From positions 3,328,001-3,392,000 of the forward strand of contig OY970368.1 of assembly GCA_963718615.1 (NCBI GenBank): 64,000 bases of DNA, read 5' to 3'. Origin of the DNA: an uncultured cyanobacterium. GTDB taxonomy: Bacteria; Cyanobacteriota; Cyanobacteriia; PCC-9006; JAAUQQ01. Shown here one piece after another: positions 45,009-64,000 of the stretch (position 1 is the stretch's first letter; each line of letters opens with the position of its first letter). The notes under the pieces were generated by a model. That model saw only the letters and a list, made by a program, of their open reading frames with translations, was not told where the DNA came from and ran no database searches. Both the position numbers and the translations under genes were made by a program.

Positions 45009-45046
45009 GCCTCCTCAGCCCCTTGACGGTCTAAGCCGTTGGTCCC

Positions 45047-47689: not shown

Positions 47690-47803
47690 GACATTCGGTA
47701 GCTCATATCTTTATGAGTACCCAATTTGATGACCTGTCTCAGAGAATGGCTCAAATTTCACGGAACGGCATGACCCGACAAAGACGCCGGCTGGAAAAAA
47801 GAC

Positions 47804-48760
47804 TTAAAGCTTCAAATCTCCCTTAGGGTTCAGCCATTCATTCAATCCCTCACCCAGCAGCGAGAGGCTCACCACTAACGTGGTCAAGGCCAGTCCCGGA
47901 AACAGCGCTGTCCACCAAATTCCTGTGGGCAACGCCCCCAGAGCCTGTTGCAAATCCTGCCCCCATTCCGGTGTAGTGGGGGGTAAGCCCAAGCCTAAAA
48001 ATCCTAAGCCTCCCAGAACCAACACCGCATCCGCCGCATTGAGCGTAAACAGCACCGGTACGCTGGGAATCACATTCAAAAATAAATATCGACTGATAAT
48101 TTTCCAGGTCGACGCGCCCATGGCCTGGGCCGCTTCCACAAACAGCTCGGCCTTGACGCTGACGGTCTGGTTACGCACGACCCGATAGTACTGGGGCACA
48201 TAGGCAACACAGAGGGCCAGCGCCGCATTGAGCAACCCTCGCCCTACCACAAAGGCCAGCGTAATCGATAGCAACAACCCCGGCAAGGTGTACAGCGTAT
48301 CCATCAAAAACAGCAGGATCCGATCCAACCCGCCCCCCAAATAGCCGCTGACCAGCCCAAGGGGAACACCGATCAGCAAACTGAGCAACGTCGCTAAAAC
48401 AACCACCTTGAGCGCGGCCTGGGTCCCAAACAGCGTCCGCGAAAACACGTCATACCCCTCTTGGCTAGTGCCAAACCAGTGGGCCGCTGACGGAGGCTCA
48501 TGGATCGGATTGATTAGGGATGCTGTGGGATCCTGCACCCAGCCCAACCCTTGGAACAGGGGCGCGAGCAGCGCGAGCAAGATAAAGGCCAAGGTCATCA
48601 GCAAGCCCACCCCCGTCAGCCGCGCCGACAAACTGGGTCCAAATAGACCCCGAATCTGACGCAGTGATCCAGATTGAATGAAAGATGCCATGGCAGATTG
48701 CACCGAATGATTGAACCGAATGCTGTCGCCCCATTCTAAAACTGAAGACAACACAAACAA
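47804..48760 (-). CDS. Peptide/nickel ABC transporter permease (DppC/OppC type)
   Basis: PPSAAHWFGT..G.DVFSR, FVEAAQAMGAS (EAA loop), LGFLGLG.P...PEWG, WWTALFPG. True start probably ATG 48691. Confidence 0.88.
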   Translation of the reverse strand: MFVLSSVLEWGDSIRFNHSVQSAMASFIQSGSLRQIRGLFGPSLSARLTGVGLLMTLAFILLALLAPLFQGLGWVQDPTASLINPIHEPPSAAHWFGTSQEGYDVFSRTLFGTQAALKVVVLATLLSLLIGVPLGLVSGYLGGGLDRILLFLMDTLYTLPGLLLSITLAFVVGRGLLNAALALCVAYVPQYYRVVRNQTVSVKAELFVEAAQAMGASTWKIISRYLFLNVIPSVPVLFTLNAADAVLVLGGLGFLGLGLPPTTPEWGQDLQQALGALPTGIWWTALFPGLALTTLVVSLSLLGEGLNEWLNPKGDLKL

Positions 48761-48937
48761 ATGTTAACCAGATCGATCGTTTACTTTGCCCCTCTAAAAT
48801 TCTCGTTTACCATTGGGCCGGGTTGCAGCTCGATGAAGACTTGCTTGCGAGTGATCAGGCAGGTCTGTTTTGTGCATGAATTCCAGGATTTCCCAGACTT
48901 TGCTAACCTAGCTTAGATAGTCTTGGAAGGTTGACGC

Positions 48938-50101
48938 GTGGATATCCAACTGGGAAGGGGTAAGGCTGCCCGTAGAGCCTATGGAATTGACGAAATTGCG
49001 CTGGTTCCTGGCCCGCGTACGTTAGATCCCAGTCTGGCGGATACTCGCTGGAGCATTGGTGGCATCGAGCGGGAAATCCCAATTATTGCGAGCGCGATGG
49101 ATGGCGTCGTGGATGTGAAAATGGCGGTCCGCCTCGCTCAGTTGGGCAGTATGGGTGTGATTAATTTGGAGGGGATTCAGGCCCGCTACGAAGATCCGGA
49201 GCCCATTCTAGATCGCATTGCGGCGGTGGGTAAGGACGAGTTTGTGCCCTTGATGCAGGAACTCTATGCCAAGCCGGTTCAGCCGGAGCTGATTCAACGA
49301 AGAATTCGGCAAGTCAAGGACCAGGGGGGCATTGCTGCGGTGAGCGTGACGCCTGTGGGCGCGCTGAAATATGGAGGGGCGATCGCCGAAGCCGGAGCCG
49401 ATCTGCTCTTTATTCAGGCCACAGTCGTTTCTACCGATCATCTCTCTCCTGAGGCCATTACACCCCTAGACTTAGCTCAGTTTTGCGCGGAAATGTCCAT
49501 GCCCGTCGTCTTGGGTAACTGTGTGACCTATGACGTTACCCTGAATCTAATGAAAACGGGCGCAGCCGCAGTTTTGGTTGGCATTGGTCCCGGTGCTGCC
49601 TGCACATCCCGTGGGGTCCTCGGCGTCGGAATTCCTCAAGCAACGGCGGTCGCTGACTGCGCCGCAGCTCGGGATGACTATTTCAAGGAGACCGGACGAT
49701 ACGTCCCGATCATTGCCGATGGTGGGTTGGTGACAGGGGGGGATATTTGCAAATGTATTGCCTGTGGAGCCGATGGCGTCATGATTGGCTCTCCCTTTGC
49801 GCGAGCACAGGAAGCTCCTGGACGGGGCTTCCACTGGGGCATGGCGACCCCTAGCCCTGTACTACCACGGGGCACCCGTATCCGGGTCGGAACAACCGGA
49901 ACACTGGAACAAATTTTGCGCGGTCCGGCCCAACTGGACGATGGCACCCATAACTTCCTCGGGGCTCTGCAAACCAGCATGGGAACCTTGGGAGCCAAGG
50001 ACATCAAGGAAATGCAGCAGGTTGAGGTGGTCATTGCCCCTTCTTTGCTGACGGAAGGCAAGGTTTACCAAAAGGCCCAGCAGTTGGGAATGGGTAAGTA
50101 G
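48938..50101 (+). CDS. guaB: IMP dehydrogenase, cyanobacterial GuaB3 type
   Basis: IIASAMDGVVD, VGIGPGAACTSRGVLG (catalytic Cys), IIADGG, WGMATPS. Confidence 0.93.
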   Translation: MDIQLGRGKAARRAYGIDEIALVPGPRTLDPSLADTRWSIGGIEREIPIIASAMDGVVDVKMAVRLAQLGSMGVINLEGIQARYEDPEPILDRIAAVGKDEFVPLMQELYAKPVQPELIQRRIRQVKDQGGIAAVSVTPVGALKYGGAIAEAGADLLFIQATVVSTDHLSPEAITPLDLAQFCAEMSMPVVLGNCVTYDVTLNLMKTGAAAVLVGIGPGAACTSRGVLGVGIPQATAVADCAAARDDYFKETGRYVPIIADGGLVTGGDICKCIACGADGVMIGSPFARAQEAPGRGFHWGMATPSPVLPRGTRIRVGTTGTLEQILRGPAQLDDGTHNFLGALQTSMGTLGAKDIKEMQQVEVVIAPSLLTEGKVYQKAQQLGMGK

Positions 50102-50224
50102 GGAGCGTCATGGCGTCGTAAAGAAATGTTGCAAAACCCCGCAACTGTTTATCTTTCAACGCTTTTCCGCTCATTTCCTTGTGATATTGCGTGATATTGC
50201 ACTGATAAATTGAGACGAGGCAAC

Positions 50225-50230
50225 TACAAT
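50225..50230 (+). promoter_or_regulatory. -10 element of yfr1
   Basis: TACAAT about 6 nt upstream of the Yfr1 5' hairpin. Confidence 0.55.
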
Positions 50231-50235
50231 AAAGT

Positions 50236-50305
50236 GAGCGGAGACGCATGTTTCCGTTCACTCCTCACACCACACTTCGCCTGGACGGAAGTTCAGGCGT
50301 TTCTT
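50236..50305 (+). ncRNA. yfr1: Yfr1 small RNA
   Basis: Ultraconserved ACTCCTCACAC at 50260-50270 between a 5' hairpin (gcggagac-gcat-gtttccgt) and a terminator hairpin (cgcctggac-ggaa-gttcaggcg plus T-rich tail). Located in the guaB-trxA spacer, the known Yfr1 locus. Confidence 0.93.
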
Positions 50306-50422
50306 CTTTTATTTGTCCCCTCGTTTTCTGTATCCAAGTATGTCGGTCCTATTATCAAAATTCTCAGAGTTCGCTATTGTAGGAAATTGAGGATAATGAT
50401 TCATTAACCAAGGGTTTTAAGC

Positions 50423-50746
50423 ATGTCAGCAGCCGCTTCGGTGACGGATGCCAATTTCAAGTCGGAAGTGTTGGAAAGTGAGCTTCCCGTACTCGTGGAC
50501 TTTTGGGCTCCTTGGTGTGGCCCCTGTCGGATGGTTGCACCGGTTGTCGATGAAATCGCCCAACAGTACGAAGGTCAAGTCAAAGTGGTCAAGGTCAATA
50601 CGGACGAGAGTCCAAGCGTGGCCAGCCAGTATGGCATTCGGAGCATTCCGACTCTAATGGTCTTCAAGGGAGGGCAGCGGGTCGATATGGTTGTGGGTGC
50701 TGTCCCCAAAGCAACATTGGCCAATACCCTCGAAAAATATCTCTAA
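50423..50746 (+). CDS. trxA: Thioredoxin (m-type)
   Basis: [25 protein letters not shown]. Confidence 0.97.
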
Positions 50747-50793
50747 GGTCTCCCTAAGCCCGTTTTCGGCATTAGGCCAAAAACAGATTGACG

Positions 50794-50824
50794 AGCGAGG
50801 TCTCAGGACGGGGCCTCGCTTTTG
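50794..50824 (+). terminator. Rho-independent terminator after trxA
   Basis: agcgaggtctc-agga-cggggcctcgct followed by ttttg. Confidence 0.75.
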
Positions 50825-50906
50825 CTAGTCTGATTTTGTGGCGTCTGCGCTTCATTCCCTGAGAAGTCATTGGGTACAATGAGAGTCCAATTCGTAAGCA
50901 TCACCT

Positions 50907-51974
50907 ATGGGCTCATCCAATCCGACGGCAGCGCTGGAAACCCTTCAGTCAGAACTCTCTACCCTTATTGCTCAATTACCGTCCTTAGAACATGGCAAGC
51001 TGATTAAGCGTGTTCTAGAAAGCCTCTTGGTGATGGCCCAGGAAGACCTAGAACGCCTGGATTGGAAAATTTTGCTGGGCTCTTTGCAAGACATGGAGCG
51101 AGCCTTCACGCTGTTTTCGCCCTATCGACATATTCGCAAAATTGCGGTGTTTGGTTCAGCGCGAACGCCAAAGACGGACCCGGATTATCCGATGGCGGTT
51201 GAGTTTTCTCGCCGGATGGCGGAGCAAGGCTTCATGATTATGACGGGTGCAGGGGGGGGGATCATGGAGGCAGCGAATGAAGGGGCGGGGCGATCGCAAT
51301 CCTTTGGGCTCAATGTCCAACTCCCCTTCGAGCAAAGCGCCAATCCCTTTATCAAAGGGGATAATAAGCTTCTGCAATTTAAATACTTTTTCACCCGCAA
51401 ACTCTTTTTTCTGCGGGAAACCGATGCAGTCGCGGCCTTCCCTGGTGGTTATGGCACCATGGATGAACTCTATGAATGTTTAACCCTGGTGCAAACGGGA
51501 AAATTTGGACCAGCACCGCTCATTTTGGTTGATCGACCGGGTGGAGATTATTGGCAGGAGTGGGAGAAATTTAGTAAGGATCAGCTTCTTCTAAAAGGAC
51601 TCATTAGTCCTGAAGATCCTTGCCTATATACGATTACGGATCAAGTCGAAGTTGCCTGTCGAGTTATCTCTGATTTCTATCGTGTTTACCATTCTAGTCG
51701 CTATGTTGGACCCTTGTTTATCATGCGGCTCAAGGCTGAACTAACGGATGAAGATGTAGAGTTTCTGAATCATTCATTCAAAGATATTTTAGTCACCGAT
51801 CGGATTGAAAAAACTCAAGCCCTGCCGGAAGAGGCCGCCGATGAAACCGTTGGCATGCCGCGCCTTAAGTTTCACTATAATCAGCGAGATACGGGACGTC
51901 TTTATCAACTGATTGCAGAAGTGAATCGATTGGGTGTCAAGTCCCTAGGTGAAGCTCACCCAGAGCAAAAATAA
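50907..51974 (+). CDS. LOG-family (lysine-decarboxylase-like) nucleotide monophosphate phosphoribohydrolase
   Basis: VFGSART, TGAGGGIMEAANEGA, FKYFFTRK, FPGGYGTMDE (PGGxGTxxE). Confidence 0.9.
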   Translation: MGSSNPTAALETLQSELSTLIAQLPSLEHGKLIKRVLESLLVMAQEDLERLDWKILLGSLQDMERAFTLFSPYRHIRKIAVFGSARTPKTDPDYPMAVEFSRRMAEQGFMIMTGAGGGIMEAANEGAGRSQSFGLNVQLPFEQSANPFIKGDNKLLQFKYFFTRKLFFLRETDAVAAFPGGYGTMDELYECLTLVQTGKFGPAPLILVDRPGGDYWQEWEKFSKDQLLLKGLISPEDPCLYTITDQVEVACRVISDFYRVYHSSRYVGPLFIMRLKAELTDEDVEFLNHSFKDILVTDRIEKTQALPEEAADETVGMPRLKFHYNQRDTGRLYQLIAEVNRLGVKSLGEAHPEQK

Positions 51975-52235
51975 TTTGATTATCGCATCCTAAGAAGAGT
52001 CAATGTTCCAATTTTATAGCATTGACTTTGTGGGCCTAATGATTGCTCTCGACCTTGACTCCAATACAGTTCTTGGCCCAGTAAATTAATATTGTCTAAA
52101 GTTATTCGTGATCATTTTACCAACAGCTTTCTTACGTATTTGAGACAGCTTTATCGATAAATTGGGAAAACTAGAAGCTAAGCACTACACGATTTAATTT
52201 TCTGTTTCTCGGAAAATCGAGGATCTTTATCAGGG

Positions 52236-54896
52236 TTGCATTTGCTGTACTCCCGTCAGGAAAGTCTACCAGGACTGTGTCTCATGAGTTACGGCCATGT
52301 TTCCGATCTAGCATCTCCTAGGAGCCAGCCAGGTCGGGATGCTGCATCCAATTCTCACCCGACCGACCCGATGTCTTCAGGTTGGTCTGAGTTTCAGCAT
52401 CTGTTCCTAACGCTGAATGAAAGCGATGGCTTTTCTCAGCTTAAACTCGTCTTGGAGAGTATGGATGATGCCATTGTTTTGCTTAATGCTCAGAGAGCAC
52501 TCCTCTTTGTCAACTCAGCCGCTAATCATCTTTTAGGAGATGGGGTGCATAGCTTTGTGCAACAAGATTGGGCAATTAGGTTAAGCGAGCTCTATGGAGC
52601 CCAAAAGTCTGCCCCAATCTCTTTGTCTGCTCAATCTTTTCTAGAGTCTACAGATTCTTCCTCCCTTTCAGAGGCAAAACCTAGAGTCTTTAAAATTTAT
52701 AGCACGGATGAGCCCGAGCAATGGATCACAGTTGTTGAACGTCCTCTCCATAATCCTCAACAGCAGTTGCTTGGCAGTTTAATTATTTGCCGTGATATCA
52801 GTGAACATAAGCGGGTTGAGGAAAAGCTGTTACATGATGCTTTCCATGACAAGCTAACGGGATTGCCCAATCGCAATCTACTACTCAAGCAGTTGGAACG
52901 GGCGATCGCCACTACTCAACAATCCTCTAAATATCAATTTTCTGTTTTATTTTTAGATCTTGATCGGTTTAAGGTCATTAATGATAGCCTTGGTCCCATA
53001 GTTGGAGACCAACTACTGATTGCAGTAGCACAACGACTGAAACGTTGCCTAAGGGTAGAAGATATAATTGTGCGCTTAGGCGGTGACGAATTTGCAATTT
53101 TGTTGAATGATATCAAAGATATCAACTATAGTCAGCAGGTTGCTGATCGAGTCAACCAAGAGCTAGTCTTACCCTTTAATCTGAATGGACATGAAGTGTT
53201 CGCGGATGTCAGTATTGGCATTGCGACTGGTGCCCAGGGGTATGAAAAACCAGAAGAAATTTTGCGGGATGCAGACATTGCAATGCACCATGCTAAAGAA
53301 CTGGGAAAATCCTGTTATCAGTTCTTTGATAAAGCGATGCATATCGATGCAGTCAAGCTGCTTCAGCTTGAAAACGATATTCGTCGAGCAGTTGATCGGA
53401 AGGAATTTCAAGTTCACTACCAACCGATCATCTCACTGCACAGCGAGGAAATTGCAGGATTTGAAGCGTTAGCTCGCTGGCGACATCCTCAACAAGGATT
53501 TATTCCTCCCTCAGAATTTATTCCCGTTGCAGAAGAAACAGGTTTAATCATTCCCCTAGGACTTTGGGTTTTACAGGAAAGCTGTTGGCAGATGAAAGTC
53601 TGGCAACTTCAGTTTCCTGAGGCGCACCAATGGACAATCAGCGTCAACATCTCCGGTCGTCAGTTGATGAAGCCACACTTTGTGGAGCATGTAAAGCATA
53701 TCTTAGCTGACACAAATCTCTCTTCTAAAAACCTAAAGCTGGAAATTACTGAGAGTGTTTTACTAAATAGTAATCAAGAGGTTACTTATATCCTAAAACA
53801 GCTTCAATCAATTGGTATTCAGCTTGCAATGGATGACTTTGGCACTGGATATTCTTCGATGAGCTATCTCTTAGATTTTCCATTTAATACGCTTAAAATT
53901 GATCGATCATTTATTAAGAGCATGGAAGGGTCTAGGAAAAAACTAGGCATTGTTCGTTCCATTATTAACATGTCAAGCAATTTAGATATGAATGTCATTG
54001 CTGAGGGTGTTGAAACTATGGGACATCTGGCTCAGCTCAAAGTTTTAAAGTGTGGCTATGGTCAGGGACATTTCTTTGCTAAAGCATTAGACTCTCAATC
54101 TGCTGAAGGGTTTATTATTTCTGAGCTTGCAAAAGTTGGAAGTAATCGTTATTCCGATCTTGAGATGTCGGTTGAAGAACTGCGATCTCGAGAACAACTA
54201 CTTCTACAAATCGAAAGCCTTCAACAGGAATTAAACGAAATTAAGCAAGAGAAAGTCGATCTTGAAATTTTATTGGAAACAGCCACAGAACATGCGAGCA
54301 TTGTCGAACTAGAATTAGAGCAAGAGATTTTCGACTATCAGAAAAACGAAGAGGCTCTTCAAAAAGCCAATCGTGAACTAGAAAATTTATCTAGCCTAGA
54401 TAGCCTAACTCAGTTGGCAAATCGCCGTCGTTTTGATGAATATATCAGAGAACAATGGGATATCTTAGGTCAACAAAACAAGCCACTCTCGCTTATTCTT
54501 TTGGATGTTGACTACTTTAAAAATTATAACGACCATTATGGACATCAAGCTGGAGATAACTGCCTCATTCAAGTTGCCCAAGTGATGATGCAATCTGTCA
54601 AAAGTTCTCAGGATTTAACGGCTCGATATGGTGGCGAAGAATTCGCAGTGATTATGCCTAATACAGGGGCAGGAAGTGCAATTAGAACTGCTGAGCAAAT
54701 CCGCATCACATTAAAATCTCGCCAAATTTCTCATGCCGGATCTCTAGTTGGTGAACATGTTACAGTCAGTCTTGGTATTGTTAGTTTAGTACCAACCGCA
54801 ACGGGCAAACCAAATGCACTGATTGACTTAGCTGATCGCGCACTCTATGAAGCTAAGTCTCAAGGGCGTGATCGGTTTATCTTATTTTCAAGCTAA
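52236..54896 (+). CDS. PAS-GGDEF-EAL-coiled coil-GGDEF c-di-GMP synthase/phosphodiesterase
   Basis: PAS/PAC (FVNSAA, CRDISEHK); GGDEF-1 (HDKLTGLPNR, RVED...RLGGDEF); EAL (FEALARW, DDFGTGYSS, EGVE); GGDEF-2 (LDSLTQLANRR, ARYGGEEF, ADRALY.AK..GRDR). Confidence 0.92.
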   Translation: MHLLYSRQESLPGLCLMSYGHVSDLASPRSQPGRDAASNSHPTDPMSSGWSEFQHLFLTLNESDGFSQLKLVLESMDDAIVLLNAQRALLFVNSAANHLLGDGVHSFVQQDWAIRLSELYGAQKSAPISLSAQSFLESTDSSSLSEAKPRVFKIYSTDEPEQWITVVERPLHNPQQQLLGSLIICRDISEHKRVEEKLLHDAFHDKLTGLPNRNLLLKQLERAIATTQQSSKYQFSVLFLDLDRFKVINDSLGPIVGDQLLIAVAQRLKRCLRVEDIIVRLGGDEFAILLNDIKDINYSQQVADRVNQELVLPFNLNGHEVFADVSIGIATGAQGYEKPEEILRDADIAMHHAKELGKSCYQFFDKAMHIDAVKLLQLENDIRRAVDRKEFQVHYQPIISLHSEEIAGFEALARWRHPQQGFIPPSEFIPVAEETGLIIPLGLWVLQESCWQMKVWQLQFPEAHQWTISVNISGRQLMKPHFVEHVKHILADTNLSSKNLKLEITESVLLNSNQEVTYILKQLQSIGIQLAMDDFGTGYSSMSYLLDFPFNTLKIDRSFIKSMEGSRKKLGIVRSIINMSSNLDMNVIAEGVETMGHLAQLKVLKCGYGQGHFFAKALDSQSAEGFIISELAKVGSNRYSDLEMSVEELRSREQLLLQIESLQQELNEIKQEKVDLEILLETATEHASIVELELEQEIFDYQKNEEALQKANRELENLSSLDSLTQLANRRRFDEYIREQWDILGQQNKPLSLILLDVDYFKNYNDHYGHQAGDNCLIQVAQVMMQSVKSSQDLTARYGGEEFAVIMPNTGAGSAIRTAEQIRITLKSRQISHAGSLVGEHVTVSLGIVSLVPTATGKPNALIDLADRALYEAKSQGRDRFILFSS

Positions 54897-55203
54897 ATTA
54901 GTAAAACTATCTTTTCAAAGAGATACCTTTTAATAACATTTTGATGGACTGTATGAGTGCAAAACTAAATCATTAAAAATTGAGAAAGCTATTTACTTCT
55001 CTACAGACAATTATTAATCAATGCCTTTGGGTCTGATGAACGACATCTACTGGTGCGAATATATCGAGAATTTAAAAAGAAAAAACTAGATTTATAGGCT
55101 CACAAGGCATTGGCAAGGCATTAGCAATGTCTTACCTCCAAAAAGCATAGACTCGACAACCTCCCAAATATTCTAAACAGCCAATAAAGAGAAGAAAAAA
55201 CTT

Positions 55204-55551
55204 TTATTGTATTTCTAGTTTCAGGCTTGGCATCAAACGTTGTAAATTCTTTAGAGATTTACCCTGCCAAGGAATCTCTTCGTTACCTAGCACAGTTAAT
55301 TGAACTGTTTTACGCTTCCTAATGTTGATTACAAACTTAGATAATAAGCTAATTCCCAAGCTATTTAGGAACTGGAGCGAGCGTAAGTCAATTATAATTA
55401 GAGACGACTCTTGGTCTGCCATGGCTTCTAACATAGAGATAATTTGTTGATAATCAGGCTCACTGCCTTGAAATCTCATCGAGCCTTCCAGTCGGATAGT
55501 TGCTTGATTAGAATCGTAAAAGACACAATATTTTTCATGGGAAATTTTCAT
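55204..55551 (-). CDS. Slr1659-type STAS-like partner-switch protein (SiaC/anti-anti-sigma analogue)
   Basis: DLRSLQFLNSLGISLLSKFVI..R and IPWQGKSLKNLQRLMPSL.L signature. ATG 55551 is in frame with ORF 55204..55599. Confidence 0.8.
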   Translation of the reverse strand: MKISHEKYCVFYDSNQATIRLEGSMRFQGSEPDYQQIISMLEAMADQESSLIIIDLRSLQFLNSLGISLLSKFVINIRKRKTVQLTVLGNEEIPWQGKSLKNLQRLMPSLKLEIQ

Positions 55552-55667
55552 ATGTAATACTTCTTTGAATGGAGATTGAGAACTAGGCATGATATTCAAA
55601 AAATGTGAAGCAGAAAGGATCGTTAACAGCTTTAAAGATGACCAAATCGAACAGTAGTCCTATAAGT

Positions 55668-56267
55668 CTAAATAGCTAGTTGTACCATAGTCGTAACCGT
55701 TATACTATCCTGACTAGTCGACTCATATTCAAACTTCCAGCCTAACTTTGCCGAATAGTCATTTAGCATAGTAAGTAGACCCAGCCCAGAATCAATATGA
55801 TTTTCAGCATTTCTTTCGAGCTGACGAATATAAAGCTCTTCTGGATCTGAATTGACAACCTCTTCAATATAGCGTTGGAAACTTAAAACTGAATGCGGAT
55901 TGATACTGTTTTTGATAAAGAAGATAATTTTGTCGACATCAAAGCAGAGACGAATTTGCGTATAGTCTACTTGGTTTTTATAACTAAACTTCATCGCATT
56001 TTCCAATAGCTCGTTGGCAATGAAGCTTACTGCATCTTTAATTTCAGCTTGTTTTTTCTGAGCCGCAAGATCTTCGTCCTTAATTGGTAAACAAGTTACA
56101 AGATAATCAGCGAGGAAATCAGCAGATATACCATTATTGCGCCATCTTTTCCTAGGAGGAGCACTACTAGGTGTGAAATGCAAAACTAGCTGCTCTCTGC
56201 AAGGAGGTAAGGCATCAATAAAATCACCAAACGTTGTAGCTGTTGGTATTATATTTCTGATAGTCAT
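55668..56267 (-). CDS. Slr1658-type GHKL-fold regulator (SiaB/anti-sigma-kinase-like)
   Basis: RWRNNGISADFLADY, ANELLENAMKF (N-box), SGLGLLTMLNDY.AKLGWKF, VTTMVQL. Confidence 0.8.
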   Translation of the reverse strand: MTIRNIIPTATTFGDFIDALPPCREQLVLHFTPSSAPPRKRWRNNGISADFLADYLVTCLPIKDEDLAAQKKQAEIKDAVSFIANELLENAMKFSYKNQVDYTQIRLCFDVDKIIFFIKNSINPHSVLSFQRYIEEVVNSDPEELYIRQLERNAENHIDSGLGLLTMLNDYSAKLGWKFEYESTSQDSITVTTMVQLAI

Positions 56268-56295
56268 TGTTTTTCCTCGGAGTAGTTAATTAGTT

Positions 56296-58098
56296 TCAGT
56301 TTTTACGTTTAATAACTAAAAGTGTAATGTCATCGTAAATTTTACTATTGTCGATATGATCGTATAAGTCCTTAATTACAGTATCCTTAATTTCTAAAGC
56401 TGATTGATGACGGCATTGATTGATGCGATCGCACATTCGTTCCAGACCATACAACTTTCCCTCTTTACTCTCCGCTTCTGTAACACCATCAGTATAAAGA
56501 ACAATAACGTCTCCTGGATGAATATAAACCTCGGTTTGATCAATAAAATCAAGAATCTCCTCTTCAAGTCCAATGGGAAAACCCAAATCAACTGTACTAA
56601 TTTGATTAATTTTTCCAGATTGAGTAAAGATTAATACTTCCTCATGCTGTCCACTTATCTTTAAACGCCCCTCATTATAGTCAACTAGCATCAACGTCAG
56701 ATTTTTATCAGTTTCCATCCTCTTAATGTTGTGAAATATGGTTCGATTAACAACATCAAGAATTCGATTTTGTTCCGTTTCTCCATTCTCAATCAATGTT
56801 CGAATTGTGGTCTGGACCATTAACATTAACACGCCACTTTCTAGGCCGTGTCCCGTTACGTCTCCTATACCAATCCGAATAGAGTCTCCATAGCAAATCA
56901 CGTCATAATAATCTCCTCCAACTTCTTCCGCAGGCGTCATAAATCCTGCAATTTCCAGATCCTCAATTTTGGCAAGCTCTTTTTCTTTTGGAAGGATCAT
57001 TTGCTGTAACTTTTGTGTGATTTCTAATTCAGCATTTAGTCGTGTATTTTCTTGTTCTAGCTTTTGATTTAATGTTGTAATTTCATGATTAGCTTGTGCA
57101 AGTTGGTCGAGATATGAAGTTTCTTGATCTCGTAATCTTTTCTTCTCAAGACAAGCATCTACACGTGCTTTGAGTAAAACTGGATTAAAGGGCTTTGCTA
57201 GATAGTCTTCTGCCCCCATTTCAATGCATTTAACGACACTATCAATTTCGTCTAAAGATGAAATCATAATTACAGGTAAATATCGCCAATCGCTGTTTCT
57301 TAGCCATTTTAATACCTGATATCCATTAATCTCTGGCATAATAACATCGAGCAACACTAAATCAAAGCTGCCTGACGTAATTGCTTGAATTGCTTCTAAT
57401 CCACTCGAAACTTCTGTTTTCTGATGCCCTTGTCGCTGAACATATCGACTTAGTAAATCTCGATTGACAGCGTTGTTATCAACAATCAAAATATGAGATT
57501 TATAACTTAGATCAGACTTGTGTTCAGTATCTTTATTCTTAGAATGACAGTTTATTTCTTGTCTGTAGTCGGATAGAGAAGGCGAGAAGTCTGAAATATT
57601 TTCTTGTTGCTTTTGAGTCGAAAACTTTAATGGCATTGTAACTGAGCTTTGTTGGATCAAGTCTTGAAAGAGACAAGCTGCAACTTCTATTTTCTCAACA
57701 TCAGCCCTGAAGGATTTAGGTGCTAAAGGTTTAAGATTTTGGCACTTTTCCAGCAATGGCTGAGCCAAAGGCTGCAACCGTGCTCGAACCCAATGTTTTG
57801 CACAATTCGATATCTCAAAAGCTATATTTTCGTCAATGACAAACTCATCTTGCAATGATTCTATCGTTAAACCGCGACCAATATAGGATACTAAATGTTT
57901 GTTCTTTAGTGAGATCTCATGTAACTGTGACGATAGGATTTGGATATCTTGCAGATCAACTGATTCTTCCAACTCCTCTATTAATAGCTCACTGTAGCCT
58001 TGAATTGCATTTAAAGGCGTATAAAGCTCATGTCTAAAATGAGCAATCCATGAGCTATAGTCTATTAGTTCAGCATCTAATGCTTGAGACACATTCAT
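56296..58098 (-). CDS. DHp(HisKA)-REC-PP2C (SpoIIE-family) phosphatase
   Basis: RHELYTPLNAIQGYSELL H-box; REC (DLVLLDVIMP, GAEDYLAKPF); PP2C motifs EVGGDYYD, IGDVTGHGLESG, LYTDGVTEA, DDITLLV. Confidence 0.9.
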   Translation of the reverse strand: MNVSQALDAELIDYSSWIAHFRHELYTPLNAIQGYSELLIEELEESVDLQDIQILSSQLHEISLKNKHLVSYIGRGLTIESLQDEFVIDENIAFEISNCAKHWVRARLQPLAQPLLEKCQNLKPLAPKSFRADVEKIEVAACLFQDLIQQSSVTMPLKFSTQKQQENISDFSPSLSDYRQEINCHSKNKDTEHKSDLSYKSHILIVDNNAVNRDLLSRYVQRQGHQKTEVSSGLEAIQAITSGSFDLVLLDVIMPEINGYQVLKWLRNSDWRYLPVIMISSLDEIDSVVKCIEMGAEDYLAKPFNPVLLKARVDACLEKKRLRDQETSYLDQLAQANHEITTLNQKLEQENTRLNAELEITQKLQQMILPKEKELAKIEDLEIAGFMTPAEEVGGDYYDVICYGDSIRIGIGDVTGHGLESGVLMLMVQTTIRTLIENGETEQNRILDVVNRTIFHNIKRMETDKNLTLMLVDYNEGRLKISGQHEEVLIFTQSGKINQISTVDLGFPIGLEEEILDFIDQTEVYIHPGDVIVLYTDGVTEAESKEGKLYGLERMCDRINQCRHQSALEIKDTVIKDLYDHIDNSKIYDDITLLVIKRKN

Positions 58099-58100
58099 AG

Positions 58101-58487
58101 CTACTCGTTTGAATAGGGCTGCGTTTTTTTGAGCAATGCTTCGATTTTACTAATCAGGCGTTTTAGATCTACTGGCTTAGTATCATAGTCATCACAACCG
58201 GCTTCTAGTGCCTTTTCGCGATCGCCTGACATTGCATGAGCAGTTAATGCAATAATCGGAATAGATTGAGTTTGAGGATTAAATTTAATATAACGCGTTG
58301 CTTCCCATCCATCTAAAATAGGTAAGCTCATATCCATTAAGACTAAGTCAGGTTTTTCTGCAATACTCATTGTCACACCTTGGGCCCCATCGGAAGCAAT
58401 TGCAACCTCGTAGCCACGTCGACTTAATCGTCGAGACAGCATATCTTGATTCATTTCGTTGTCTTCAACCAGAAGTAGCTTTACCAT
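58101..58487 (-). CDS. Single-domain response regulator (DivK-like)
   Basis: LLVEDNEMNQDMLSRRL, DLVLMDMSLP, IIALTAHAM.GD, GCDDYDTKP. ATG at 58487. Confidence 0.92.
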   Translation of the reverse strand: MVKLLLVEDNEMNQDMLSRRLSRRGYEVAIASDGAQGVTMSIAEKPDLVLMDMSLPILDGWEATRYIKFNPQTQSIPIIALTAHAMSGDREKALEAGCDDYDTKPVDLKRLISKIEALLKKTQPYSNE

Positions 58488-58548
58488 AAATTTAAAGGTC
58501 AAAATTCTTAAAAAGATTAGGGAAATAGGCAAAAGTTTAAATCTCCAA

Positions 58549-61026
58549 CTAAGATATATATGGTATTAGTAATTGAGAGTTTTCTTTTAACCTTTCCTGT
58601 CTTTCTATTGCTTTTAATAATAGATCTTTTAATGTTGAAAGGAGAATCTTGCTTTCGCATAAATCTTTAATTAAAATTTCCTCAACTTGTCCTTGCAAAC
58701 TTTGACGTTCAATGAAAGTTAGATCTTTAGCAGTCATTAAGATAACTGGGATTGCATCATAGAGACTATCCTGCCGTAAAGCCTGTAAAAACTCAAAACC
58801 ATTCATTTTAGGCATCAAAAGATCTAATATAATTAAATTAGGATAGAAACCTGAATTTAATAGATGAAGACCTTCTATACCATTTTCAGCCGTTTTGACT
58901 ATCCAACCTGCTGGTTCAAGTTGATGCGTTAATAAGTCTCGAATGATAGGATCGTCATCAATGAGCAGGATTTCTCGATTTTCTCCCTCTTGACAACAGC
59001 GTTGTAAAACCTCATATAGTCTTTGACGATCTATTGGCTTTGTTAAATATTCTGAGGCACCGAGCGCATATCCTCGACTCTGATCGTTTACAAAACTCAT
59101 CATAATAACAGGAACCTCAGCTAGTTCTGAGTCGCTCTTAATCTGACTTAAAACAGACCAACCATCAATATCAGGCAAAATTACATCCAAGGTAATTGCC
59201 TGAGGACGGATTTCCCGAGCTAATCGTAGGCCCTCACTTCCTGTCGTAACAGTTTGTACAGCAAATCCCTGTTTAACAAGAAAACGACGCATAATGTCGT
59301 GAACGGCTAGATCATCATCTATGACTAATATCGTTTTTTGTAAGTTAGGCTTTGAAAAGTCTTCGTTTTCCTGGACAACACTTAAATTATTTTTATGGAT
59401 ATCAACCTTTCTAGGTAGTTGAATTATAAATGTGGAACCCTCTCTCAATTGACTGTCTACTTTAATGCTTCCTCCCATCATTAAACAGAACTCCTTAGTA
59501 ATTGCTAATCCAAGTCCTGTTCCTCCATACTTACGGGTAGTAGAAGCATCTGCTTGAGAAAATGCTTGAAATAACTTATTTTGCTGCTCAATCGTCATTC
59601 CAATACCCGTATCTCGAACTTTAAATAGAATCAAGTTTTGATCACTATCTTGATCCTCGACGATTTCTAAATAAATTTTTCCACAACTTGTAAACTTACT
59701 TGCATTGCTCAGTAAGTTTAGTAAGCATTGGCGAATTTTAGTTAGATCAGCATACATTTCGCCAATATCGACAGCACATTCTATAATCAACTGATTTTGC
59801 TGTTTATCTATTAATGGATGTACTGTTGTAACGACGTCCTCTATTAAATCTTGAATTGAAAAAGTTTCTAAGTAAACTTCCATTCGGCCTGCTTCTATTT
59901 TAGATAAATCTAAAATATCGTTGATCAGACCTAGCAAATGCTTTCCCGCACTATGAATTTTAACTAAATCTGGGACAAAATCTTCTTCGCCTAAATCAAG
60001 CGCCTCTTCATGCAGCATCTCACTGTATCCAATAATTGCATTAAGTGGTGTTCGTAGCTCATGACTCATATTGGCAAGAAACATACTCTTCGCCTGATTT
60101 GCCTCTTCTGCAGCGGCTTTTGCCTCACGAGCTTCTTCAATGCTATCCGCTAACTCTGTAGTTCGCTGAATGACCTTCTGTTCTAGAGTTCGATTATAGT
60201 CTGCTAAATCTTCTTTTGCCTTTTCCAAGTCAATTTGGCTACTTTCTAGAGCTTCTGTTTTATTTTGAATCATGCTAGCCATTTGATCAAACGCACGGGA
60301 AATTGTTGCGAGTTCATCAGACCCCTTGAGCTGAGCACGCACACTTAAGATTCCCTCTGATAATAAGTTACTGGCTGAGACTAACCTGGCAGCACGTCGA
60401 GTTAAGACCTCTTCAAAAAAGAACCAAACTGCTATACAAAGAAGGGTAAGAACAAAGGTGGATTCTAGCGATCGCTTTAAAGCATCTCCATAGGTCTGTT
60501 GGCGTAGGCGCTTTAAGTCATAATCTAGGAACAAAATACCAATTTTTGAGGGTAATATTTCGCCTGGATCTGACTTGAAAGCAACTGGATATAGGGCTTG
60601 AATAGATTGATGATCTGGACTGATTAAAACTTCACCTGCCTGCATTTGACGAATTTTTTCTATCTTTACATGGAGTTGATCTGCGGGAGTTTCTTCAATT
60701 GAAAGACCCTTGAGAAGCTGAGATGTCGTTAGAAGTACCTTATTTTGATCATCGAAGAGAATCGCAGACTTTAATTCAACTTCGTCTTCTAACTGACTGA
60801 TCATAAGAGCAGCACCATCCCCGCTGACGCGACGATACAAGTATTCCAAGATACCAGAGGTATGGTCGCCCATAAATCTGACGTAGTTGCTTACATTTTG
60901 CTCATTGCGACGATGAGCGAGGTATACTTCACGCCGAAATGAGTAAAAGCTAGAAAAACTACCTAAGATTAGTAAAATTAACGGAATTGAAAGGCGTAGG
61001 GGTGGTGGAAACCGCTTTGACATCAT
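58549..61026 (-). CDS. Membrane hybrid histidine kinase: TM-periplasmic sensor-TM-HAMP-HisKA-HATPase-REC-REC
   Basis: Two TMs flanking about 150 aa; HAMP ([13 protein letters not shown]); [14 protein letters not shown]; [23 protein letters not shown]; two receiver domains. Confidence 0.93.
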
Positions 61027-61064
61027 CAGCTCCTAAGAAAGGACAAACAACAATCGTTGTTTGA

Positions 61065-62093
61065 CTAAGGACGAATACTTTTGATGACGCTGTCGTCCAT
61101 CAGTAGAGTTGGATCAACTGTCTTTTTCAATAAACCGTTCTGTTTCATAATTGTTACAAGATGTTTTGAGCTTTGTACTAAAGTAGATTCTTGACTTCCT
61201 AATAGAGTTTTATTTTCTTCTAGACTCGGGACTCTTACTCCTTTTAAGGATGCTAAGAAGTCTGTAGACGACATATTGTAATCAGCAGCCAAGAGTTCAG
61301 CAGATTTTTGAGGATTTGCTTCTAGATATTCTTGAGCCTTAAACCATCCTTCCAGTAGGTGTTTTAGATTACGATGTTGATTTTTGAGCGTCTCTGTATG
61401 CACACCCAGAACATCGACAATCTCTCCAGGAATCTGGCTACTATCAAATAGGTGATTTGCACCTTCCGTAACCAGTCGAGAGCTCATCGGTTCATAGGTC
61501 ACTAATCCATCAACCTTGTCTTTTTTAAAGGCTTGACCATGTTCGAAGGTTGCCAAAGGGACGATTTGCAAATCCTTAGTTGAAAGATTTACGGTTTCTA
61601 GAGCTCGGGTTAGAAGAAACGCACCTAATCCTGATGATTCAACGCCGACTCGCTTCCCTGATAGTTCCTTTAAACTGGAAATGTCAGGCTTGCCTAAAAT
61701 CGCATCGGCTCCATGGGAGCTGTCAATAACTAAGACAAAGCGCATATCCTGCATGACCTCAGCGATTGGCATTGCATCGTTCATCGTCAATGCAACGGCG
61801 TCAAGTTCACCATTTCGAAAGGCTTTGAACATTGCACTATTGGAAGAATAGGTTGTTAGGTTGGCAACATTAGAATCGTAATACTTTAAGTCCTTTGCAA
61901 GATAAAAGCTTGCATATCCTGGCCAAACAACAACACCTATCCTGATAGGATTTTCTCCAATTTGAATACAGGACGGCAAAGAAACGGTACAGAACAAAGA
62001 AACGAGAAGAAGGGAAATCCATTGAACTTTCAATTGAGAAGCAAACAACTTGATACAAGACAAAGTTTTTGCTTTCAAGAGACTTAGATCCAT
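61065..62093 (-). CDS. NMT1/THI5/SsuA-type substrate-binding lipoprotein
   Basis: Lipobox-like SLPSC; IGVVVWPGY..FYLA, DSSHGADAI, L.GKRVGVE, VTYEP, FDSSQIPGEIVDVL, WFKA. Confidence 0.85.
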   Translation of the reverse strand: MDLSLLKAKTLSCIKLFASQLKVQWISLLLVSLFCTVSLPSCIQIGENPIRIGVVVWPGYASFYLAKDLKYYDSNVANLTTYSSNSAMFKAFRNGELDAVALTMNDAMPIAEVMQDMRFVLVIDSSHGADAILGKPDISSLKELSGKRVGVESSGLGAFLLTRALETVNLSTKDLQIVPLATFEHGQAFKKDKVDGLVTYEPMSSRLVTEGANHLFDSSQIPGEIVDVLGVHTETLKNQHRNLKHLLEGWFKAQEYLEANPQKSAELLAADYNMSSTDFLASLKGVRVPSLEENKTLLGSQESTLVQSSKHLVTIMKQNGLLKKTVDPTLLMDDSVIKSIRP

Positions 62094-62146
62094 GACTCAA
62101 TACCTCAAAAATAAAGAGAAAAACTATATTGGTTTATTAATGAAAC

Positions 62147-63199
62147 CTATTGGTTAGACGCTAGTGCTTCAATAAGATGATTGTCAATCAATTCTTCTAG
62201 TGGATAAATCTTTTGAAGATGGTGACTTTGTGCCAATTCTTCTTGAAGCTTATGTACACATTTTTCTAACCATGATTCTTTGAGAGAGAGCATCCTTGCA
62301 TTTTCCTCTAAAGTATATTCATGAATTCCTTGCATTGCTTTGAAAAGTTCTTTACTCATTAGCTTATTGCGAGCAAAAATTATTTTAGCCGCATCTTGAG
62401 GCTTGTTTCTGTAGTATTCTTGTGCTTTAAACCAACCGTTTATGAGCTCTTGAAGAGCTAATTTATAGCTTTCTATTGAATCATCTCGAACCAACAAAAC
62501 ATCAACGATCTCGTTCAGCATTTGATGACTACTAAAGACTTCTTGAGCTCCTTCTGCTATTAGCTGAGAAAGAATTGGTTCATAGGTGATAATCGTAGAA
62601 ACTGATGACTGACGGAATGAATTAATTTGATCATTCAGATCAAGGGGAACAACCTGAATATCCTCTATCGTCAGTCCTGCCAGATCGAGTAGACGTGTGA
62701 GCATTAAGGTTCCCCGGCTCGAAGCTTCTATAGCAACAGTTTGTTTTTTTAATTCATAGAGAGATTTTATAGGATTTCGAGTAATAACAGCATCTGCCCC
62801 ACAGGAACTACTCAAGATCAAGACAATTTTGAGATGCGGATCTGTATCTGAAAGAAGCAAAGCATCTCCCAATGAAAGCAGTAATCCGTCAAGTTGCTGA
62901 TTGCGAAAGGCACGATTTTTATCTTCAACGGTAGGATAATTAATCAGCCTAATATCTTGTTGATCGTAATAGCCTAAACGTTGAGCAAGATAAACGTTGT
63001 TATAAGAAAGGCCAGTAGTTGTTCCAATTCTGAGAGGAGCTGCATTCGAGGTGCAACTCACAAAGGCTAGACTAATAGCGCTAATGAGTCCAACCAAAAG
63101 CGTCTTGAAGCGATGTTTTTTGGGAACCGGCGATCGCCAAGCGGAATATATTCTATTGATCAATCTAATTGATCTAAGTGGTAGAGAACGGCGCATCAC
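62147..63199 (-). CDS. NMT1/THI5/SsuA-type substrate-binding lipoprotein (paralog)
   Basis: Lipobox-like AFVSC; YLAQRLGYY, SSSCGADAV, ITYEP, FSSHQM.NEIVDVL. WFKAQEY is shared with the adjacent paralog. Confidence 0.82.
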   Translation of the reverse strand: MMRRSLPLRSIRLINRIYSAWRSPVPKKHRFKTLLVGLISAISLAFVSCTSNAAPLRIGTTTGLSYNNVYLAQRLGYYDQQDIRLINYPTVEDKNRAFRNQQLDGLLLSLGDALLLSDTDPHLKIVLILSSSCGADAVITRNPIKSLYELKKQTVAIEASSRGTLMLTRLLDLAGLTIEDIQVVPLDLNDQINSFRQSSVSTIITYEPILSQLIAEGAQEVFSSHQMLNEIVDVLLVRDDSIESYKLALQELINGWFKAQEYYRNKPQDAAKIIFARNKLMSKELFKAMQGIHEYTLEENARMLSLKESWLEKCVHKLQEELAQSHHLQKIYPLEELIDNHLIEALASNQ

Positions 63200-63648
63200 C
63201 TTTACTTACCCAACAAACTGCTGGAAATTGACTCATTATCCTTTTGACCCATTAATCGCCTTTAACTCCGTCTCTGTTTTATAGAAAAGCGGTTTATCTA
63301 CGGCTTTGGATAGGATGTCCTTCAGTATGCCCAGCGAGATTTTAAAACCGACAAAATTTGATTAGTCCGTAAAACCTAGGAAGCACTTGAGTCATGATTC
63401 TCTAGGAAACCGTGTTTTTACTCAATTCTCCTTAGTCAGGGTTATCTATGCTAGATATGTAGATCTTGTCTATGGGCTTCATCTCTATTACTTAGAAGCT
63501 GTCTGCTTAAATGTTATCCGTCTTGTCGTTTTCCATCTTGATTGCTATCTAGCGTTGATCACTCAGTTGATTCATCAAGTTGGTACACTCAATTAGTACG
63601 TCGCCATTCTCATCCATCATTCTTGTACGTTGTAGAGTTTTGAACACA

Positions 63649-64000
63649 ATGAAATCCTCTGTGCATAGGCTGAATGACATTACCCAGCATGAAATTGAGG
63701 CACTCAAACATGAATATAATATGTCTGATGCTCATACACATCAATCTCAGTCTCCAAGCCAGAGGAAAATTGTAGAGCGTCTACCACAGCTTTGGTTTGA
63801 CGCAGAGAATAAGCGACAACATGAGTTAGAGCAATGCTTCTTAGAAAATTTCTTTCGGGTACAGGGACGACCTTGGGCGCTTAAAAATAAGCTTCCTATG
63901 CTGGTCTATTCAGCTTCAATTGCAATGGCAATTACTGCAAACTACCTGCTTAAGAAAAAGCTGACTGTAAGTTTAATTCATCCATGTTTTGACAACTTGG
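63649..64000 (+). CDS. RohP/MppP-family PLP- and O2-dependent L-arginine oxidase, 3'-truncated by window (not in ORF track)
   Basis: Hand translation from ATG 63649, open to the window end: MKSSVHRLNDITQHEIEALKHEYNMSDAHTHQSQSPSQRKIVERLPQLWFDAE...VYSASIAM...LTVSLIHPCFDNL. Matches the RohP N-terminus as I recall it (DLTQHEIQAL..YNLADAHTHQ.QS.SQ..IV.RLPQLW..AE...PCFDNL). Confidence 0.82.
   Translation, partial: MKSSVHRLNDITQHEIEALKHEYNMSDAHTHQSQSPSQRKIVERLPQLWFDAENKRQHELEQCFLENFFRVQGRPWALKNKLPMLVYSASIAMAITANYLLKKKLTVSLIHPCFDNL

Follow-up and report, generated by a model that had tools for sequence, protein, structure and literature searches.

The window analysed here is a stretch of 64,000 nucleotides (positions 3328001-3392000 of a complete 6.10-Mb single-contig genome) from an uncultured cyanobacterium whose closest public relatives are metagenome-assembled genomes (MAGs) of the Pseudanabaenaceae. 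Towards its right end lies an island in which a sensory operon is placed head to head with genes predicted to convert L-arginine into a small molecule, the latter continuing past the window end. Genes were called from a list of open reading frames (ORFs), their domains were checked by Pfam and NCBIfam, and 20 kb were read past the window end (L002; a position in L002 plus 63000 gives the window position, called window-equivalent where it lies beyond 64000). From left to right, the features are the following.

52284-54896, plus strand: PAS-GGDEF-EAL-coiled coil-GGDEF protein, by Pfam and NCBIfam (the ORF opens with TTG at 52236; the likely start is the ATG at 52284).
55204-55599, minus strand: slr1659-superfamily STAS-like protein, likely start Met17 at 55551 (NF047705, 141.9 bits against a cut-off of 100).
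55668-56267, minus strand: slr1658-family protein, DUF6272, GHKL-like (NF052618, 250.1 bits against a cut-off of 200; DUF6272, 28.8 bits).
56296-58098, minus strand: DHp-REC-PP2C phosphatase (HisKA at residues 17-55, Response_reg at 203-313, SpoIIE at 405-598 with 130.8 bits).
58101-58532, minus strand: stand-alone receiver (Response_reg, 89.1 bits), 78-92% identical in the related loci L006, L007 and L009.
58549-61026, minus strand: hybrid histidine kinase, with a transmembrane segment at residues 9-30, a PDC-type periplasmic domain at 31-185, a second transmembrane segment at 186-210, then HAMP, HisKA, HATPase, REC and REC.
61065-62093, minus strand: binding protein SBP_B of the NitT/TauT (NMT1/SsuA) family (NMT1_2, 66.1 bits; SsuA_fam, 116.6 bits, and TIGR03427, 108.8 bits, both under cut-off).
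62147-63199, minus strand: binding protein SBP_A, a diverged paralog of SBP_B, 35% identical to it (NMT1_2, 36.2 bits).
63200-63648: divergent intergenic gap of 449 bp between SBP_A and rohP.
63649-64872 window-equivalent (L002 649-1872; 5' end 63649-64000 in the window), plus strand: RohP-type O2- and pyridoxal phosphate (PLP)-dependent L-arginine oxidase-hydroxylase, 407 residues, by structure match to RohP.
64790-65644 window-equivalent (L002 1790-2644), directly after the oxidase: RohR-like class I aldolase of the DHDPS family (PF00701, 74.6 bits).
65957-66457 window-equivalent (L002 2957-3457), next after the aldolase: SMR-family pump (Multi_Drug_Res, 77.2 bits).

The seven minus-strand genes are tightly spaced and stand in the transcription order SBP_A, SBP_B, hybrid kinase, receiver, DHp-REC-PP2C, slr1658, slr1659. 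Gene order, strands and domains between 52236 and 64000 are those given by an earlier interpretation made from the letters alone (the sequence-only reading), and all of the genes it named were recovered by the ORF list, Pfam and NCBIfam. Its description of the block as AT-rich holds as well: between 52236 and window-equivalent 66457 the individual genes have a G+C content (GC) of 0.36-0.45, the genome as a whole 0.523, and the stretch 54897-65956, with a GC of 0.383, falls at the 0.1 percentile of 3042 12-kb genome windows. GC returns to normal at the M17 aminopeptidase gene to the right of the SMR gene, and in all four genomes examined the island lies below its flanks in GC. No integrase or transposase domain was found by Pfam among the ORFs scanned in the island and on its right side, nor any tRNA gene in 45000-64000. 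The best explanation is that an island of about 11-14 kb was acquired horizontally, with its two halves inherited as a unit.

Such joint inheritance is observed among the relatives. The nearest RohP genes in the genome collection (72-74% identical) belong to four Pseudanabaenaceae MAGs (loci L006-L009), and in all four of these related species rohP and rohR lie head to head with the same sensory operon, which bears out the linkage of oxidase and operon that the sequence-only reading had proposed. All sensory genes are carried by L006, L007 and L009, SBP_A being degenerate in L007, and the contig of L008 ends inside the kinase gene. Protein identities across the four loci run from 48% to 92%. 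The family sample comprises eight genomes from three genera, five of them with RohP; SBP_B orthologs of at least 56% identity are present in exactly those five, on the same contig, and the three genomes without RohP (88%, 87% and 62% complete) have only SBP_B paralogs of 20-29% identity. An SMR protein with the long tail described below occurs in four of the five RohP-bearing genomes and in none of the other three. RohP is rare in the phylum, being found in three of 401 sampled cyanobacterial genomes, including the one studied here, with the other two proteins 47% and 44% identical to it. The gene of 47% identity (L004, G065:C39:5027-6190) contains one in-frame TAA and is possibly a pseudogene, and no aldolase gene lies in the 4.2 kb examined there.

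The intergenic gap from which the two halves diverge contains one non-coding block of 40 nt (63413-63452) that is conserved across five species in an alignment of their five intergenic regions, and this block is a candidate shared promoter or operator. A scan for promoter and terminator consensus sequences found fewer sites than in shuffled sequences (18 against 25.3, and 3 against 6.5) and so was left unused.

Two of the related loci (L007, 12593-14892; L009, 12584-14843) have a trio of DUF2282, MbnB/TglH/ChrH and DUF2063 genes followed by an Rce1-like protease gene after the aldolase. The trio, which in L007 separates the aldolase from the SMR gene, presumably has the layout of clusters for bufferin-type copper-binding RiPPs (ribosomally synthesised and post-translationally modified peptides). 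The head-to-head arrangement has outlasted both considerable sequence divergence and changes in the flanks, the cases being kin and not independent of each other.

The half presumed to make the small molecule begins with the oxidase gene. Its start is the ATG at 63649, an identical protein of 407 residues is on record, and against the PDB it matches RohP (6C3A-D) with 423.3 bits (E 9.4e-126, residues 31-409) and MppP (5dj1) with 164.3 bits; entries 6C3A and 6C3C are given as RohP in a preprint (bioRxiv 10.64898/2026.02.25.707955). The protein is of the fold-type I aminotransferase-like kind (PF00155, 34.5 bits). Both its EDTGKTWP stretch, with the PLP lysine, and its N-terminal DAHTHQ align with RohP and are conserved, D27, A28, H29, T30, H31, Q32 and K230 being invariant in an alignment of 22 oxidase sequences; we take the PLP-binding lysine and the N-terminal histidine segment to be catalytic in RohP/MppP oxidases. 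Since the protein falls outside the MppP (enduracididine) equivalog (TIGR04462, 164.2 bits against a cut-off of 450), it is RohP-like and not MppP.

The aldolase that follows contains VIYN and IKDSS, presumably the sites of the catalytic Tyr and Schiff-base Lys motifs of the DHDPS family. Its identity to the aldolases of rohPRQ clusters in MAGs of Pseudomonadota is 48-52%, and to those from clusters of actinomycetes and Pseudomonas 28-36%. Of 80 genome loci, 77 have an aldolase homolog after RohP; of 80 metagenome loci, most of them short, 56 do. The order in which the azomycin enzymes act has been described as RohP oxidase, RohR retro-aldolase, RohQ cyclodehydratase and RohS N-oxygenase (PMC10724926). 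In the cluster of a Pseudomonas MAG (L065), RohP is followed by genes for DUF6190, DHDPS, Haem_oxygenas_2 and a Rieske protein, and this gene order fixes the correspondence of RohQ, RohR and RohS to the DUF6190, DHDPS and Haem_oxygenas_2 families, respectively.

RohQ (DUF6190, PF19689) was found in both of two positive-control genomes, but neither in the complete genome nor in any of three relatives. The cyclodehydration that RohQ catalyses is reportedly also spontaneous, judging from the title of a paper on the enzyme. No RohS-type haem-oxygenase-like N-oxygenase was found in the island by Pfam or NCBIfam, and the sole RohS-like match in the genome (33% over 192 residues to Pseudomonas RohS) lies about 460 kb away. 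That gene, of the HDO family, is at genome positions 3848855-3849430 (L086), within an open frame of 405 residues. Because RohQ is lacking genome-wide and no RohS is linked, the half that makes the small molecule would be expected to yield 2-aminoimidazole or its open-chain aldehyde precursor, not azomycin, and the azomycin end of the comparison made by the sequence-only reading has to be given up. Known azomycin clusters (RohPQRST of Streptomyces and Pseudomonas) are like the island in having a RohP relative first and a DHDPS-family aldolase next; the island differs in lacking RohQ, a linked RohS, Rieske and DoxX genes, and the azomycin clusters of actinomycetes and Pseudomonas that we examined have no sensor operon, whereas the island has one.

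The SMR gene and the aldolase gene are the partners that the sequence-only reading had expected to find beyond position 64000; RohQ, which it had also listed among the genes to look for, is absent. The pump is atypical. Its tail of about 60 residues is conserved, ends in PEFS and is not found in other cyanobacterial SMR proteins, and its motif LDVLG (with Asp and Gly) stands against LEVVW in two other cyanobacterial SMRs. Scores against the PDB barely separate an entry of the Gdx-Clo type (64.7 bits) from EmrE (60.7 bits). An assignment as guanidinium (Gdx/SugE) exporter was considered and rejected, as the SugE score is 73.3 bits against a cut-off of 126 and the tryptophan that we take to be its marker is lacking.

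On the sensory side, both binding proteins score above the NMT1_2 cut-off of 24.7 bits, and at the N terminus of each a single hydrophobic segment ends in Cys, i.e. a lipoprotein-like export signal. No ABC permease or ATPase gene was found by Pfam or NCBIfam between 52236 and window-equivalent 66457. SBP_B is the better conserved of the two, being 54-72% identical to its orthologs in L006-L009, against 35-49% for the fast-evolving SBP_A, which has a 77-residue internal deletion in L007 and an Asp to Asn change at one pocket position in L008 and L009. As SBP_A evolves faster and decays in some relatives, SBP_B is the likelier working receptor, and it is presumed to be the ligand receptor of the hybrid kinase. 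Matches of both proteins to the PDB are weak (taurine, sulfonate and nitrate binding proteins, E 4e-5 to 8e-3) and have no bearing on the ligand. An AlphaFold2 model of SBP_B, built from a five-row alignment, was poor (mean predicted local distance difference test, pLDDT, 45.6) and was left out of the pocket and fold work.

Outside the island, the nearest paralog of both binding proteins in the same genome is a GimA-like protein (29% identical to SBP_B, 25% to SBP_A), with an SsuA-family score of 275.7 bits. Its operon (genome positions 4367016-4372201; L151 6016-11201, minus strand) consists of a GdmH-like agmatinase-family gene, hypA-like and hypB-like genes, the binding protein, a permease and an ATPase, a layout identical to that of gdmH-ghaAB-gimABC described for Synechocystis (PMC12704784). 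The same source reports that Synechocystis GimA binds guanidine with a dissociation constant of about 97 nM and proposes a pocket of W59, W62, D135, F205 and D233. At these five positions, mapped with a constant offset of 21, the GimA-like protein has W,W,D,F,D, SBP_B has W,Y,D,Y,D and SBP_A has G,Y,D,Y,D, so that aromatic residues and Asp are kept by SBP_B at all five; the pattern is unspecific, one other paralog in the genome having W,Y,D,Y,D and two more W,W,D,Y,N, and since at least one further paralog shares it, it leaves the ligand unfixed. As proof of a ligand the pocket pattern was accordingly discarded. Neither protein is a GimA ortholog (25-29% identity, no gdmH or ABC context): the island resembles GimABC/GdmH in its binding-protein superfamily and in the similar pocket positions of SBP_B, and differs in that SBP_A and SBP_B head a kinase operon without permease, ATPase, hydrolase or riboswitch. 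These comparisons fit a small cationic nitrogen compound as the ligand, without singling out 2-aminoimidazole.

The hybrid kinase has about 155 periplasmic residues between two membrane segments, as judged by hydropathy. An AlphaFold model of residues 25-192 shows a single PDC fold (pLDDT 69.9), for which Foldseek returned the sensor domains of WalK, KinD, CitA and CqsR (E 9e-6 to 5e-4); this fold search was used in place of a protein-atlas look-up, which led to sCache/CHASE-type clusters only. Complex prediction of SBP_B with the periplasmic domain gave a score of 0.54, which is weak (passes of 0.60 or less being so classed), against 0.04 for the best of three controls. The mark used for this score is reached by 116 of 157 solved complexes and by 2 of 215 mismatches. 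Alignments were shallow, the runs agreed in at least 93% of contacts and the partner pLDDT was at least 80.

The pairing recurs in other cyanobacteria. At each of 14 loci (L158-L171) an SBP_B-like gene lies next to a gene for a kinase whose N-terminal domain is homologous to that of the island kinase and is followed by HAMP-HisKA-HATPase (e.g. L158, 7368-10474), a PIN gene intervening in one of them. These cassettes show the same pairing and order as SBP_B and the kinase of the island, and differ from it by a single binding protein, by the absence of the PP2C-slr1658-slr1659 tail and by having no RohP in the vicinity; the genes downstream of them vary, with REC-GGDEF in one locus only. That all 14 loci agree is strong support for a functional pairing of the two proteins. 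The general design recalls LuxP/LuxQ, the autoinducer-2 receptor of Vibrio, which is made of a periplasmic binding protein and a hybrid kinase. In both cases a binding protein without transporter stands beside a hybrid kinase, and the periplasmic domain of the kinase is of the PAS/PDC type. The two differ in that LuxP is of the ribose-binding-protein type and the island proteins are two paralogs of the NitT/TauT type, and in that the island kinase has one PDC domain instead of two and leads to a partner switch and not to LuxU/LuxO; the NCBIfam LuxQ model scores 273 bits on the cytoplasmic core of the island kinase, below its cut-off of 1200.

Downstream of the kinase lies what appears to be a phosphorelay ending in a partner switch. 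The H-box of the PP2C protein, FRHELYTPLNAI, is intact and the protein has no ATPase domain; by analogy with SiaA it is presumed to be both the point of phosphotransfer and the switch phosphatase. In the same way, the slr1658 protein is presumed to be the serine kinase of the switch (SiaB-analogous) and the slr1659 protein its phosphorylated partner (SiaC-analogous), with a candidate phospho-serine in DLRSLQFLNSLG. Both are single-copy in the genome. The STAS match of slr1659 is 18.9 bits, under the cut-off, and a comparison of slr1658 and slr1659 with the PDB gave nothing below E 0.1. A slr1658 gene is present in 71 of the 401 cyanobacterial genomes. Twenty other slr1658/slr1659 loci were examined, picked for long contigs; slr1659 is adjacent in all 20, a PP2C gene lies within 5 kb in nine, and a GGDEF gene like the C-terminal part of the convergent protein lies within 2 kb in six. 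None of the 20 has the SBP-SBP-kinase head, so that this head appears on the switch only where rohPR is present.

SiaABCD of Pseudomonas aeruginosa has been described as a PP2C phosphatase, a kinase, a STAS-like partner and a diguanylate cyclase (PMC7647112, PMC8457831). The island is like it in that a PP2C phosphatase, a small GHKL-type kinase and a STAS-like substrate are encoded together. It is unlike it in three respects: the island slr1658 scores 21.8 bits with SiaB_fam_kinase (NF038262) against a cut-off of 85, the island phosphatase is driven by a phosphorelay (DHp-REC) and SiaA by its own sensor, and the island operon has no cyclase gene. The likeness drawn by the sequence-only reading is therefore sustained as to mechanism (with PP2C in 9/20 and GGDEF in 6/20 of the other loci), and not as to SiaB membership or a SiaD-type cyclase within the operon.

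The gene on which the operon converges has its cyclase and phosphodiesterase motifs, with GGDEF at 282 (RxxD five residues upstream), EAL at 410, DDFGTG at 533, EGVE at 590 and GGEEF at 799 intact, and a coiled coil at about 640-720 before the second GGDEF domain. Its C-terminal part scores 256.8 bits against SiaD, under the cut-off of 290, and its C-terminal stalk-GGDEF is 35-43% identical to cyclases beside slr1658/slr1659 elsewhere. Because of these resemblances cyclic di-GMP (c-di-GMP) is the likeliest class of output, as far as can be judged from the comparisons, and the convergent gene is a candidate for the output of the partner switch. Its place in the island is another matter. Full-length orthologs (66% and 61%) are on other contigs in two relatives and the best match in a third is partial, with 49%. 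In one relative, the ortholog (65-66%) follows ABC permease, IMPDH-like, thioredoxin and LOG genes as in the left flank here, and has a GC of 0.52, against 0.42 for the gene in the window. As that ortholog sits with the same flank genes at normal GC, the gene belongs to the left flank; this synteny rules it out as a part of the island, and it is no conserved neighbour of the operon, which weakens the sequence-only reading on this point. No DNA-binding output, transcription factor or sigma factor was found by Pfam or NCBIfam to be encoded in the operon or island.

Binding proteins also lie beside RohP in other phyla. In two related MAGs of Pseudomonadota (L010 and L014) a four-helix-bundle methyl-accepting chemotaxis protein, an NMT1 binding protein, rohP, rohR and rohQ follow each other on one strand; in L017 rohPRQ is preceded by genes for CheA, a CheW-like protein and a weakly matching NMT1-like protein (20.2 bits, E 6e-4); and two Actinophytocola loci have an NMT1 binding protein and an ABC permease beside a full cluster. 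Over 82 RohP loci there are 13 binding-protein genes within 5 kb and none at 5-10 kb, one of the 13 being itself a query. The proteins of these other phyla are 30-39% identical to the GimA-like protein of our genome, against 23-27% to SBP_A and SBP_B, so it seems that the superfamily was recruited beside RohP more than once. Most actinomycete, Patescibacteria and metagenome RohP loci have no binding-protein gene, and a metagenome scan (80 loci) yielded no further cyanobacterial or chemoreceptor-linked RohP loci.

RohS is present in only 23 of these 80 metagenome loci. Patescibacteria and further uncultured lineages commonly have rohP-rohR(-rohQ) clusters that lack RohS (L015-L023 and a large part of L172-L203), which suggests, from gene content, that 2-aminoimidazole itself is a widespread end product. 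Some of these clusters adjoin serine recombinases or methyltransferases.

The island is thus a real, co-inherited unit that combines genes for making and genes for sensing, and a new combination of known modules. The best reading of it, to which we give a probability of about 0.4, is that it senses its own product. The RohP-type oxidase would turn L-arginine and O2 into 4-hydroxy-2-ketoarginine, which the RohR-like aldolase would split into pyruvate and guanidinoacetaldehyde; the latter would close on itself to 2-aminoimidazole, without RohQ to speed the closure, and the atypical SMR pump at the island edge would probably export it. In the periplasm SBP_B, and perhaps SBP_A, would bind a small cationic nitrogen compound, most likely the island's own product, and dock on the PDC domain of the kinase. 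Phosphate would then pass from the kinase histidine to one or both receivers of the kinase, on to the ATPase-less DHp domain of the PP2C protein and to the receiver of that protein, with the stand-alone receiver as a branch or sink of the relay. The PP2C domain would set the phosphorylation state of slr1659 against the slr1658 kinase, and the target of free slr1659 would most likely be a SiaD-like diguanylate cyclase, for which the C-terminal GGDEF domain of the convergent protein may be one candidate. A fuller version is possible but doubtful: exported 2-aminoimidazole or guanidinoacetaldehyde would be a self-made signal, read via the binding-protein/PDC kinase, the relay and a SiaBC-like switch to control c-di-GMP and aggregation, with some Pseudomonadota wiring the same molecule to chemoreceptors. 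Compared with the quorum-sensing-like layout imagined by the sequence-only reading, the aldolase and exporter have been added and the linkage upheld, and the linked cyclase and the azomycin comparison have dropped out.

A number of observations weigh against self-sensing, several of them by favouring another explanation. SBP_B-like proteins (36-43% identity) occur in 19 of the 401 sampled cyanobacterial genomes, none of which has a RohP match; this type of sensor therefore needs no RohP synthase and may read an environmental compound. The sensor would then respond to an outside cue (an environmental nitrogen compound such as guanidine, agmatine, a polyamine or arginine-derived material) and time the making of 2-aminoimidazole, which would not be the ligand and may serve as an allelochemical against competitors' biofilms or be a by-product of arginine breakdown. 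GimA, the nearest characterised relative of the binding proteins, binds free guanidine, a spermidine synthase gene is divergent from the cassette in two loci of one genus, and many RohP-RohR(-RohQ) clusters stand without any sensor. We nevertheless regard this explanation as unlikely, as the island encodes no transcription or sigma factor that could switch rohPR on, slr1658/slr1659 pair elsewhere with PP2C and GGDEF genes and not with transcription regulators, and chemoreceptors, the sensors linked to RohP in Pseudomonadota, act otherwise than through gene expression.

The conserved linkage may partly reflect shared descent, since all five species belong to one family, and the right flank of SMR and M17 genes is common to the present genome, L006 and L007, i.e. 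a single chromosomal site wherever the flank is visible. Both points would suit a history in which rohPR(-SMR) and the sensory operon are unrelated cargo, kept together by descent from one ancestral insertion. RohP and the aldolase have their nearest relatives outside the cyanobacteria (65-68%), and SBP_B and the kinase inside them (36-43%), so the island is a mosaic, and neither an integrase nor a tRNA gene marks it as a single mobile unit. Mere cargo is nonetheless rather unlikely. The divergent layout, the short gap and the non-coding block have survived across three genera at identities down to 48-72%, while the flanks changed through the bufferin-like insertion of L007 and L009 and the placement of the cyclase gene elsewhere. 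Members of the same binding-protein superfamily were recruited separately by RohP in Pseudomonadota and actinomycetes, always within 5 kb, and the binding-protein/kinase head is on the slr1658/slr1659 switch only together with rohPR (0/20 other loci).

The identity of the product can be questioned too. MilM, 60% identical to RohP, is reported to serve mildiomycin synthesis with the partner MilN (PMC12464687), so that an oxidase with a partner enzyme need not mean retro-aldol cleavage. In that case 4-hydroxy-2-ketoarginine might be coupled by the aldolase to a second metabolite, or the product might not leave the cell, any signal being a larger guanidino acid. The absence of RohQ from the genome would agree with this, as would the Gly of SBP_A where GimA has Trp, which could enlarge the pocket. 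Such a different product is quite improbable: the island contains no other biosynthetic gene, and in the closest non-cyanobacterial clusters (L010-L013 and L017) a RohQ family gene comes directly after the aldolase, which ties this aldolase clade to the guanidinoacetaldehyde route. The retro-aldol assignment turns on that one point, namely that the aldolases of these clusters are 48-52% identical to ours and have RohQ right after them.

The remaining points against self-sensing concern its individual steps. The membrane carboxylate of the pump is Asp in the present genome and in L006, in place of the usual Glu found in L007, and a Gly occupies the position three residues further on where Trp is presumably the mark of guanidinium exporters. 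The pocket of SBP_B is shared with other paralogs, as noted above. The PAS-GGDEF-EAL-GGDEF gene is not a neighbour of the island in L006, L007 or L009. Adjacency of a binding protein to RohP is a minority trait (12/82 loci, and 1/80 metagenome loci), shown by kin within each clade. As the operon has no DNA-binding output, no autoinduction loop is visible, and Rfam at the gathering threshold detected no family, and hence no riboswitch, in the island, L002, L006, L007, L009 or L010. Finally, product, ligand, order of phosphotransfer and effect on c-di-GMP are steps that we infer.

Our literature search, with most subscription journals outside its coverage, found no RohP-linked sensor, no natural signalling role of 2-aminoimidazole, no function for slr1658/slr1659 and no paper describing the SBP_B-like/PDC-kinase cassette; the papers that name slr1658 or slr1659 deal, judging by their titles and the start of their abstracts, with large-scale or unrelated work. 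Synthetic 2-aminoimidazoles have been studied as antibiofilm agents. If self-sensing is correct, the island would define a new chemical class of bacterial autoinducer and a natural counterpart of those synthetic compounds, and its receptor for the parent 2-aminoimidazole would be of interest to the antibiofilm field. It would also be a cyanobacterial cell-to-cell signal whose maker, exporter, receptor and relay can all be named from sequence, which is so for few signalling systems of the phylum, and would give a natural function to the 'truncated' rohP-rohR(-rohQ) clusters, the slr1658/slr1659 pair and the transporter-less binding-protein/PDC-kinase cassette. Even without self-sensing, a class of ligand is matched in a testable way to an orphan sensor family.

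Two further observations lie outside the island. The only Rfam match in 50000-64000 at E up to 1 is the small RNA Yfr1 (RF01116; 50238-50301, plus strand, 58.3 bits, E 1.2e-9), and the thioredoxin gene at 50423-50746 follows it closely. Elsewhere in the genome there are three more low-GC stretches (12-kb windows at or below 0.41), at about 1356000-1374000, 2126000-2140000 and 3154000-3172000, which are possibly foreign islands as well.

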